Shown in pieces: positions 4,874-7,544 of a stretch of 64,000 nucleotides of DNA. The notes beneath the pieces were generated by a model. It was not told where the DNA came from. It saw only the letters and a program-made list of their open reading frames with translations, and searched no databases. The DNA comes from Escherichia phage vB_EcoM_HZ_ZJUN4. Within the stretch, counting starts at the first letter, position 1, and each line of letters starts with the position of its first letter. The DNA lies in the sequence record PP216085. The stretch is one strand, 5' to 3'. The position numbers and the translations under genes were made by a program.

Positions 4874-5700
<827 letters not shown>

Positions 5701-5720
5701 AATAACGCGTGGCGGAAAAT

Positions 5721-6071
5721 ATGAACTTTAATTATTATCCTATTCTATTAGAAAAAGACGCGAAACAACCAAAATGGCAGGGTCCTCAGTTTATTAAAGG
5801 CGTCTATCAATTAGTAGTTCCCAAAGATAAGATTTATAGCAGCAGTTATTGCACTGAATCCGCTTGCAGTATTTTCGGTAATAGTTCTCCGTATTGGAAT
5901 TTTGATATAAAATTGGATAGAAATATCGATATTTGGTTGAAAGCTATGGATATTGGCAATATCACGTTTGATGAGAATAATTATCATATTATTGGTCGTT
6001 TTTCCAAACGTGGTAAAGAATTATATTTCACTCCTGAAATCGAAAGAAAATTTGATGCTAAACCGTATTGA
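5721..6071 (+). CDS. hypothetical protein, about 116 aa, inserted between frd and td
   Basis: ORF MNFNYYPILLEKDAKQPKWQGPQF... (ORF-track GTG start at 5709; ATG at 5721); no similarity I recognise. Confidence 0.45.
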   Translation: MNFNYYPILLEKDAKQPKWQGPQFIKGVYQLVVPKDKIYSSSYCTESACSIFGNSSPYWNFDIKLDRNIDIWLKAMDIGNITFDENNYHIIGRFSKRGKELYFTPEIERKFDAKPY

Positions 6072-6116
6072 TTATTTAGCTTCATAAAATGTATTATAAT
6101 TTATATAAGGTACTAA

Positions 6117-6977
6117 ATGAAACAATACCAAGATTTAATTAAAGACATTTTTGAAAATGGCTATGAAACTGATGACCGAACAGGCACAGGAACAATTGCT
6201 TTGTTCGGTACTAAATTACGCTGGGATTTAACTAAAGGTTTTCCTGCAGTAACAACTAAGAAGCTCGCCTGGAAAGCTTGCATTGCTGAGCTACTTTGGT
6301 TTTTATCAGGAAGCACAAATGTCAATGATTTGCGATTAATTCAACATGATTCATTAATTCAAGGCAAAACAGTCTGGGATGAAAATTACGAAAATCAAGC
6401 AAAAGATTTAGGATATCATAGTGGTGAACTTGGTCCAATTTATGGAAAACAGTGGCGTGATTTTGGCGGTGTAGACCAAATTATAGAAGTTATTGATCGT
6501 ATTAAAAAATTGCCAAATGATAGGCGTCAAATTGTTTCAGCATGGAATCCAGCTGAACTTAAACATATGGCATTACCACCTTGTCATATGTTTTATCAGT
6601 TTAATGTGCGTAATGGATATTTGGATTTACAGTGGTATCAAAGAAGTGTTGACGTGTTCTTGGGCTTGCCATTCAACATTGCATCATATGCTGCATTAGT
6701 TCATATTGTAGCTAAGATGTGTAATCTTATTCCAGGAGATTTGATATTTTCTGGCGGTAATACTCATATCTATATGAATCACGTAGAACAATGTAAAGAA
6801 ATTTTGCGTCGTGAACCTAAAGAGCTTTGTGAACTGGTAATAGGCGGATTGCCTTATAAATTCCGCCATCTTTCTACTAAAGAACAATTGGAATATGTTC
6901 TTAAACTCAGGCCTAAAGATTTCGTTCTTAAAGGTTACGAATCACACCCTCCTATTAAAGGAAAAATGGCGGTGTAA
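6117..6977 (+). CDS. td: thymidylate synthase, 286 aa, uninterrupted (no group I intron)
   Basis: MKQYQDLIKDIFENGYETDDRTGTGTIALFG...; continuous 286 aa reading frame including catalytic PCH motif; AAGG RBS. Confidence 0.97.
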   Translation: MKQYQDLIKDIFENGYETDDRTGTGTIALFGTKLRWDLTKGFPAVTTKKLAWKACIAELLWFLSGSTNVNDLRLIQHDSLIQGKTVWDENYENQAKDLGYHSGELGPIYGKQWRDFGGVDQIIEVIDRIKKLPNDRRQIVSAWNPAELKHMALPPCHMFYQFNVRNGYLDLQWYQRSVDVFLGLPFNIASYAALVHIVAKMCNLIPGDLIFSGGNTHIYMNHVEQCKEILRREPKELCELVIGGLPYKFRHLSTKEQLEYVLKLRPKDFVLKGYESHPPIKGKMAV

Positions 6978-7000: not shown

Positions 7001-7264
7001 ATGATTTTACGATTTAAAGATACTTCTGGTGTAGTTCTTTTTACACTTCCTAATCCAAGTGAGTTAGAAGTTCCAGGACCAAATCAGCCTATTATCATTT
7101 ATGGCAAAAAATATTATACTCATAAAATGACTCGTGAGTATTTTGATAATAAAATTTCTACAGTTAAAACTTCTTCAGATTGTTACTATGATATTACTGT
7201 TTTAACGGAAAAACAATATGACGAATTATCACCGCGCGGGCCGTCTATGCCAAGTAGTGAATAA
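7001..7264 (+). CDS. hypothetical protein, 87 aa (nrdA.1-like position)
   Basis: ORF with GAGGA RBS between td and nrdA. Confidence 0.5.
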
Positions 7265-7544
7265 ATATAAATCCGACTTTGATGTTAATATTCACCGTGG
7301 TACATTTTGGGGAAATTACGTCGGTAAAGATGCTGGCAGCCGGGAGGCTGCCATTGAATTATTCAAAAAAGATTTTATACGTCGAATTAAATCCGGAGAA
7401 ATAACTAAAGCACATTTAGAGCCTTTACGTGGAATGAGGCTAGGATGCACATGTAAACCAAAGCCGTGTCATGGTGATATAATAGCTCATATAGTTAACC
7501 GATTGTTTAAAGACGATTTTCAAGTTGAGGACTTATGCAATTAA
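7218..7544 (+). CDS. hypothetical protein, 108 aa, Cys/His-rich C-terminal motif (nrdA.2-like position)
   Basis: ORF overlapping both neighbours; motif [12 protein letters not shown] suggests metal binding. Confidence 0.5.

Follow-up and report, generated by a model that had tools for sequence, protein, structure and literature searches.

In bacteriophage T4, the genes for dihydrofolate reductase (frd) and thymidylate synthase (td) are fused end to start: on the minus strand of NC_000866, frd lies at 145109-145690 and td ends at 145112, a 4-nt ATGA overlap. In Escherichia phage vB_EcoM_HZ_ZJUN4 (record PP216085), of which a stretch of 64,000 nucleotides was analyzed (hereafter the window), the two genes are separated by about 415 bp that contain a 116-aa open reading frame (ORF), here called gene X. 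A first reading made from the sequence only had named the T4 overlap, which we confirmed, and had taken the additional DNA for an unusual insertion, probably mobile cargo. The locus thus raises the question of which junction is the derived one, and of what the product of X might do next to these two enzymes.

Layout of the frd-td interval

The window belongs to a T2-like Tequatrovirus. Its frd-td segment is 97% identical to that of vB_EcoM_WL-3 and 95% identical to that of T2, and its Frd protein shares 95-97% identity with the T4 and T2 proteins. The interval between the end of frd at 5700 and the start of td at 6117 is organized as first described, with these elements:

5119-5700, + strand: frd (dihydrofolate reductase, 193 aa), with the stop codon TGA at 5698-5700; from the ORF list, with which the T2 annotation agrees
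5694-5702, + strand: left copy of the 9-nt direct repeat TAAATGAAA, the left edge of a 420-bp indel relative to T4 (T4/T2 alignment)
5701-5720, + strand: frd-X spacer of 20 nt, with a Shine-Dalgarno-like GGCGGA at 5711-5716
5721-6071, + strand: gene X, 116-aa orphan protein with an ATG start; PHROG 1928, the same as RB32ORF229c, T2 EcT2_00240 and T6 AXN58269
6072-6116, + strand: X-td spacer (td leader) of 45 nt, identical by sequence in six Tequatrovirus copies
6076-6107, + strand: 32-nt indel segment TTAGCTTCATAAAATGTATTATAATTTATATA, with a MotA-box-like AGCTTCA at 6078-6084 and TATAAT at 6095-6100; candidate middle promoter for td
6107-6110, + strand: AAGG, ribosome-binding site of td, 6 nt before the ATG; AGGT is retained in short-spacer variants
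6114-6122, + strand: right copy of TAAATGAAA, including the td start codon
6117-6977, + strand: td (thymidylate synthase, 286 aa), uninterrupted; from the ORF list

The translation of X starts with MNFNYYPILLEKDAKQPKWQG..., and an in-frame GTG upstream of the gene, at 5709, is not used by the homologues.

X is already known as an annotated hypothetical gene of T2, T6 and RB phages. In T2, the gene at the frd-td junction is annotated as hypothetical (EcT2_00240, BBF63391.1); in T6, it is annotated as AXN58269.1 with the note "RB32ORF229c" and lies beside an intron-containing td; and it is also present at the junction in RB14, RB7, RB27, RB68 and AR1. As the sequence-only reading had named annotation in reference T-even genomes as what would speak against it, its mobile-cargo view is largely refuted by these records. 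A literature search with the locus names of X gave no match, and the accessible part of a phage accessory-gene screen (PMC12373910) has no match for "thymidylate" or "accessory region" and no mention of the frd-td locus.

Several features around the interval were noted in passing. The td gene of the window lacks the group I intron and the I-TevI gene, both found in T4 and T6; some phages have X together with an insertion in td, so one does not preclude the other. Upstream, an 81-aa ORF at 4874-5119 (PHROG 3183, the RB32ORF231c of T2 and T6) overlaps the frd start in a TAATG. T4 has only a 71-bp gap between frd.1 and frd and no 81-aa gene, so it appears reduced on both sides of frd. Downstream, the nrdA.1 homolog (108 aa, 7218-7544) matches only the C-terminal third of the PHROG 464 profile (positions 182-300 of 322) and, weakly, a family labelled NrdA-like; in a relative, the copy has the Pfam domain DUF4326.

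Gene X is conserved as a protein

Six Tequatrovirus copies of X were compared codon by codon. Of the variable sites, 26 fall on third, 6 on first and 5 on second codon positions, and the only length changes are one in-frame 3-nt indel and a 2-nt gap at the last codon in two copies, a pattern of substitution by which X is under purifying selection. The ribosome-binding site and start codon of X, GGCGGAAAATATG, are unchanged even in the Mosigvirus copies, and GGCGGAAAATATGAA, within the frd-X spacer, shows no variation among six phages, Mosigvirus copies included. The minus-strand ORFs of the interval (58, 39 and 33 aa) have no coding support comparable to that of X. The interval almost certainly holds a real, already annotated protein-coding gene.

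At the protein level, X matches the PHROG 1928 profile with E=1.2e-33 over residues 4-112 of 116 (profile positions 2-125 of 126), and a family HMM built here recovers it at 4e-34 and detects no other family member in the window. When 1.84 billion representative proteins were searched with a profile, the family came to only 39 clusters; the 90%-identity cluster that contains the window X has 154 member sequences in the protein collection. Members are ~95-139 aa long (two longer weak matches look unrelated), and the identity of homologs to X falls to ~20-30%. In an alignment of 48 sequences, W19, G92, K96 and G98 are invariant, and Q16, G27, Y29, F94 and F103 nearly so. By tblastn, 362 phage records have a copy at >90% amino-acid identity and 193 have distant copies. 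As far as sampled, the family is confined to T4-like (Straboviridae) phages of Enterobacterales.

A 195-aa protein from a 100-kb NCBI contig (P0015) has as its last ~45 residues the C-terminus of a Jiaodavirus-type X, its 150-aa N-terminal part being unrelated. It was rejected as a natural fusion partner of X; it probably represents a rearrangement or a frameshifted or miscalled gene and is uninformative.

The slot between frd and td across genera

Loci were fetched from Kanagawavirus, Jiaodavirus, Marfavirus, Moonvirus, Karamvirus, Bragavirus, Gelderlandvirus, Tegunavirus and Mosigvirus, as well as from IMG/VR and Logan contigs, and a script located Frd, Td and the X family members in them, a 14-member alignment being used for the locus search. 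In each of the 25 fetched loci with a family member, one or two copies of it stand directly between frd and td and share their strand. With Tequatrovirus, the slot is shared by at least 10 genera, and also by Morganella and Providencia phages; matches in phages of Morganella, Providencia, Serratia, Erwinia, Enterobacter and Yersinia are annotated beside DHFR or TS. Among the homolog-bearing loci examined, X was never seen outside this slot, and the stop and start codons of the copies usually overlap those of their neighbors.

In many genera the slot holds a second, longer tandem copy, X', which is a paralogue of X (hhalign probability 98%, same PHROG). The fullest arrangement seen, frd-X-X'-Y-td, occurs in two metagenomic relatives (X identity 61-65%), where Y is an unrelated 68-aa ORF (PHROG 9550). 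Klebsiella phage Merci (Jiaodavirus), which has a single X, carries a putative I-TevI-type endonuclease on the opposite strand directly downstream of td (locus L004, 3668-4399).

Within Tequatrovirus, allele classes were drawn from records that match the fused flanks, sampled at even spacing. The X allele (insert of ~415 bp) is the majority among the sampled Tequatrovirus records. A second allele has an insert of 202 bp consisting of the 68-aa ORF Y with ATGA-type overlaps on both sides, and is found in ~134 Tequatrovirus-like records at >90% identity. One example is the following:

L007 497-703, at the junction equivalent to window 5698-6119: gene CHD2BS1_148 of vB_EcoM-CHD2BS1, starting with MSNKLKVKDVPNAMALFICRQ...

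The empty, T4-type fused junction was found in only 32 records (T4 strains, RB55, RB59 and ~10 natural isolates), which are 97.5-100% identical to one another across the junction. On these sequence comparisons, the frd-td junction is a polymorphic accessory slot with three Tequatrovirus alleles, namely X, the unrelated 68-aa ORF Y, and the empty state. In Marfavirus and in the frd-X-X'-Y-td contig, the ORF that immediately precedes td shares 78% identity with Y, so the Tequatrovirus alleles look like different remnants of a single larger cassette; T2-like phages, the window included, would have kept X, others Y, and T4 neither. Distant Y homologs (38-42% identity) occur in phages of ~150 kb, and two of the records that match carry the name Phapecoctavirus.

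A candidate promoter in the td leader

The td leader pointed out in the sequence-only reading, with TATTATAAT at 6092-6100 and the AAGG, is present as described. All 45 nt of it are identical in the six Tequatrovirus copies, while 22% of the third codon positions of X vary. Part of the leader is itself an indel: Shf125875 and PTK (Mosigvirus) and Phaginator (Tequatrovirus) keep X but have only 13-15 nt before td, and the 30-32 nt absent from them correspond to window 6076-6107, which is the promoter-like part.

Middle promoters consist of a MotA box, wwwTGCTTtA, followed after 12 ± 1 bp by an excellent -10 element, TAtaaT (PMC2988021). The leader contains tttAGCTTCA, with one core mismatch to this box, followed by TATAAT after 10 bp and by TAATTT after 12 bp, and a sigma-70-like match lies at 6068-6097. 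A td-proximal promoter in the leader is a plausible candidate. We propose tentatively, as a possibility that is somewhat doubtful, that in T2-like phages td is transcribed from a start of its own, provided by the segment 6076-6107 as either a middle promoter dependent on MotA or a sigma-70 promoter. The invariance of the spacer and the behavior of the segment as a discrete unit that is present or absent as a whole would suit such a role, as would the likeness to the MotA box and the perfect TATAAT. However, the perfect -10 element lies one base too close to the box for the published rule, the first T of TGCTT is replaced by A, and the phages that lack the segment still have X and td. Moreover, a relaxed MotA-like pattern is not enriched in the window (10 matches vs 6.5 ± 2.3), and promoter-like matches are at background level for this AT-rich region (16 vs 11.2 ± 3.3).

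The leader RNA has an unremarkable predicted fold (z = -0.94) with no stable structure, and an Rfam scan of the spacers returned only two chance-level matches to eukaryotic families, far below gathering scores. At the other end of X, in the equivalent of window 5690-5725, the three short-spacer phages Shf125875, PTK (L036, L037) and Phaginator (L038) have two extra A before the frd stop (TATAAAAATGAAATA). These shift the frame, and Frd is annotated there with 204-205 aa and an 11-nt overlap with the start of X.

Predicted structure and possible function of X

The absence of a recognizable motif, reported in the sequence-only reading, holds after database searches: X has no Pfam match at E up to 10 and no match in NCBIfam or in PADLOC (anti-phage defense), and a PDB sequence-profile search gave nothing better than E 0.17. 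An AlphaFold2 model computed from a 14-sequence alignment (pLDDT 83, pTM 0.78) has strands at residues 6-12, 27-34 and 63-65, a helix at 69-77, and strands at 81-83, 87-97 and 100-105. The model appears as a small beta-barrel with one helix, at best weakly similar to an OB fold. Its structural matches are weak and dominated by OB folds (SSB, RPA14/32, Stn1-Ten1, S1 and Teb1), with which the predicted protein shares the element order b1-b2-b3-helix-b4-b5, and its conserved aromatic and basic residues would fall on or near the b1-b2 loop, b2 and the b4-b5 hairpin. In BFVD, only uncharacterized T4-like phage proteins match the model. A cold-shock domain, considered for the KW...KG(I/V)Y motif, was rejected: hhalign against E. 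coli CspA gave a probability of 0.4%, and there is no Pfam CSD match.

The conserved residues of the 48-sequence alignment are aromatic, basic or glycine, with no acidic, His, Ser or Cys catalytic candidates, so X is most likely a binding protein and not an enzyme. The family has a median pI of 8.7, and 17% of the window X is aromatic. X shares the strand of frd and td and has a conserved ribosome-binding site of its own; by analogy with T4, the protein would be made in the prereplicative period from frd/td transcripts. We infer that it could bind a partner in the nucleotide-precursor module, either DHFR, thymidylate synthase, or a nucleic-acid or nucleotide ligand. The only functional clue is the constant association, with frequent translational coupling, to frd and td, and it favors a nucleotide-precursor role over host takeover only slightly. 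X is absent from T4, RB69 and Gaprivervirus and is thus dispensable and not required for DHFR or TS function, and its constant place may be no more than gene order handed down in a densely packed operon. The identities of X correlate with those of Frd (r=0.98) and of Td (r=0.83), but the correlation stems from two relatedness clusters and was therefore not used as evidence of interaction.

X could instead be an accessory host-takeover or counter-defense protein that came to lie between frd and td by historical accident and acts on a host factor or defense system, which we regard as unlikely, though worth keeping in view. X is indeed small and dispensable, sits in the prereplicative gene block, belongs to a family limited to phages of Enterobacterales, and occupies a site with three alleles and identical breakpoints within one genus, as is typical of T-even accessory loci; the alternative allele Y, with its distant homologs in ~150-kb phages, also fits such an origin. 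Yet X has been kept in the slot while Frd diverged to 29-48% identity, and the retention of two paralogues in many genera makes it steadier than most counter-defense genes. The basic family pI does not suggest an acidic DNA mimic, and the lack of matches in Pfam, NCBIfam and PADLOC counts against this reading as well, although this last point is a weak one.

A binding protein functionally tied to DHFR and TS has, in our estimate, a low probability. The more specific model, in which X, with X' where present, serves the phage thymidylate cycle as a dedicated OB-like adaptor subunit binding DHFR, thymidylate synthase or both, is very unlikely to be right in this form. Under that model, X would tether the two enzymes for the hand-over of dihydrofolate or dock them into the dNTP-synthesizing complex. 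If this were true, the deletion of the gene in T4 would be the sole reason why sixty years of work on T4 genetics missed X.

Insertion into the window or deletion from T4

Compared with T4, the window has exactly 420 extra bases, whose edges are the two TAAATGAAA copies at 5694-5702 and 6114-6122. A check for flanking repeats and endonuclease remnants, proposed in the sequence-only reading, thus yielded a 9-bp direct repeat and no homing-endonuclease remnant. Exact copies of TAAATGAAA number 10 in the window against 3.85 ± 2.0 expected; besides the two at this locus, they occur at the real gene junctions 14073 and 17069 and at six further sites. Judged from this distribution, TAAATGAAA is a general stop/start junction motif of the genome. 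Being over-represented and located at several stop/start junctions, it could act as a microhomology for cassette loss or exchange elsewhere.

In T4, deletions are known to arise between short direct repeats. Since the fused allele is rare and uniform, and since the synonymous diversity of X in Tequatrovirus equals that of its flanks, a deletion in the T4 lineage by this route is the most economical explanation. The ATGA overlap of T4 would then have arisen by loss of 420 bp between two copies of TAAATGAAA, the motif that couples stop and start codons. The polarity first proposed is thereby most likely reversed, T4 looking like the deleted form, and we consider it probable that X is a resident gene of this junction.

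The opposite reading, in which X is mobile or recent cargo inserted into an ancestral frd/td ATGA overlap with the 9-bp repeat as target-site duplication, is improbable. It gains from the repeat, which flanks the extra DNA exactly, and from the wider distribution of the two states: the fused junction also occurs in RB69 (Frd identity 58%) and in Gaprivervirus (62-64%), the nearest genera by Frd identity, and the frd-X-td segment has crossed into Mosigvirus. Shf125875 and PTK of that genus carry a Tequatrovirus-like frd-X-td at 89-94% identity, while RB69, of the same genus (Frd 58%), has no X, so exchange between genera is indicated. The X proteins of Tequatrovirus and of the L030/L031 lineage are also closer (61-65% identity) than the Frd proteins (48%). 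Together with the fused junctions of RB69 and Gaprivervirus, this makes it possible that the Tequatrovirus ancestor regained X by recombination.

A mobile origin of X agrees poorly with the remaining evidence. Neither the ORF nor the DNA beside it showed a transposase or any domain or remnant of a GIY-YIG or HNH homing endonuclease, and when 48 members of the family were searched against Pfam (E up to 1), the only matches were scattered, single and weak (best E 0.011), none of them to a nuclease family. The supposed duplication is the general stop/start motif of the genome, found at other gene junctions; X lies in the same slot in every homolog-bearing locus examined, in at least 10 genera; and within Tequatrovirus it is as polymorphic as its flanks. 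Two particular candidates were also rejected: a free-standing homing endonuclease (seg/mob, GIY-YIG, HNH) or its remnant, as the X family contains no nuclease domain or fragment, and a transposable insertion with target-site duplication, for which the 9-bp direct repeat is present but terminal inverted repeats at the boundaries and a transposase are not. What stands of the first interpretation is an accessory slot that is polymorphic, the T4 overlap and a distinct td leader; the new mobile insertion does not, the ORF being annotated in T2, T6 and RB phages and the fused state of T4 being rare.

The weakest alternative, in which 5721-6071 is a chance open frame in a non-coding spacer, could appeal to the lack of a database domain match and has practically no probability left, being already refuted by the strong third-position bias, the conservation of the protein to ~20-30% identity with invariant motifs in 48 aligned members, the confident fold prediction (pLDDT 83) and the conserved ribosome-binding site.

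Taken as a whole, the explanation that we favor, with moderate confidence, is that of a long-resident orphan gene X, deleted in T4, whose product would be a non-enzymatic binder co-expressed with DHFR and TS.

Comparison with known systems

The closest known counterpart is RB32ORF229c of T2, T6, RB14, RB32, RB51 and AR1, which is the same gene as the window X, with the same position, strand and spacers. The window protein is 97% identical to those of T2 and T6 and 100% identical to the vB_EcoM_SP1 and FL33 copies; it differs from that of T2 only by point differences and one in-frame 3-nt indel, which adds a Ser codon at 5838-5840.

X shares with the rest of PHROG 1928, X' included, the motifs QxKW, (K/H)G(I/V/L)Y, GN and GRFxKxGxxxxF, as well as the frd-td slot. 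The long form X' of Kanagawavirus, Marfavirus, Moonvirus, Karamvirus, Gelderlandvirus and Bragavirus differs by an insertion of ~15-25 aa (PTIxEYxxNP...) after QxKW. In contrast to the phages with X', the window has the short form only, as one copy flanked on either side by an untranslated spacer, and no overlapping stop and start codons. The Y family, PHROG 9550, uses exactly the same frd/td junction as X, with breakpoints in the same ATGA motifs, but its sequence is unrelated. The comparison across T4-like phages of Enterobacterales yields, as a by-product, a description of the small-gene cassette between frd and td, which extends up to X-X'-Y. Phages that differ in X and are otherwise isogenic-like would offer a natural experiment on the function of an orphan family that travels with DHFR and TS.

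Finally, T4 itself is without the 420 bp of X and its leader. Its junction has one copy of TAAATGAAA, and the 3' end of frd and the 5' end of td are 95-98% identical to those of the window. The main value of the analysis is thus a correction: at the frd-td junction, it is T4, the model phage, that is exceptional.
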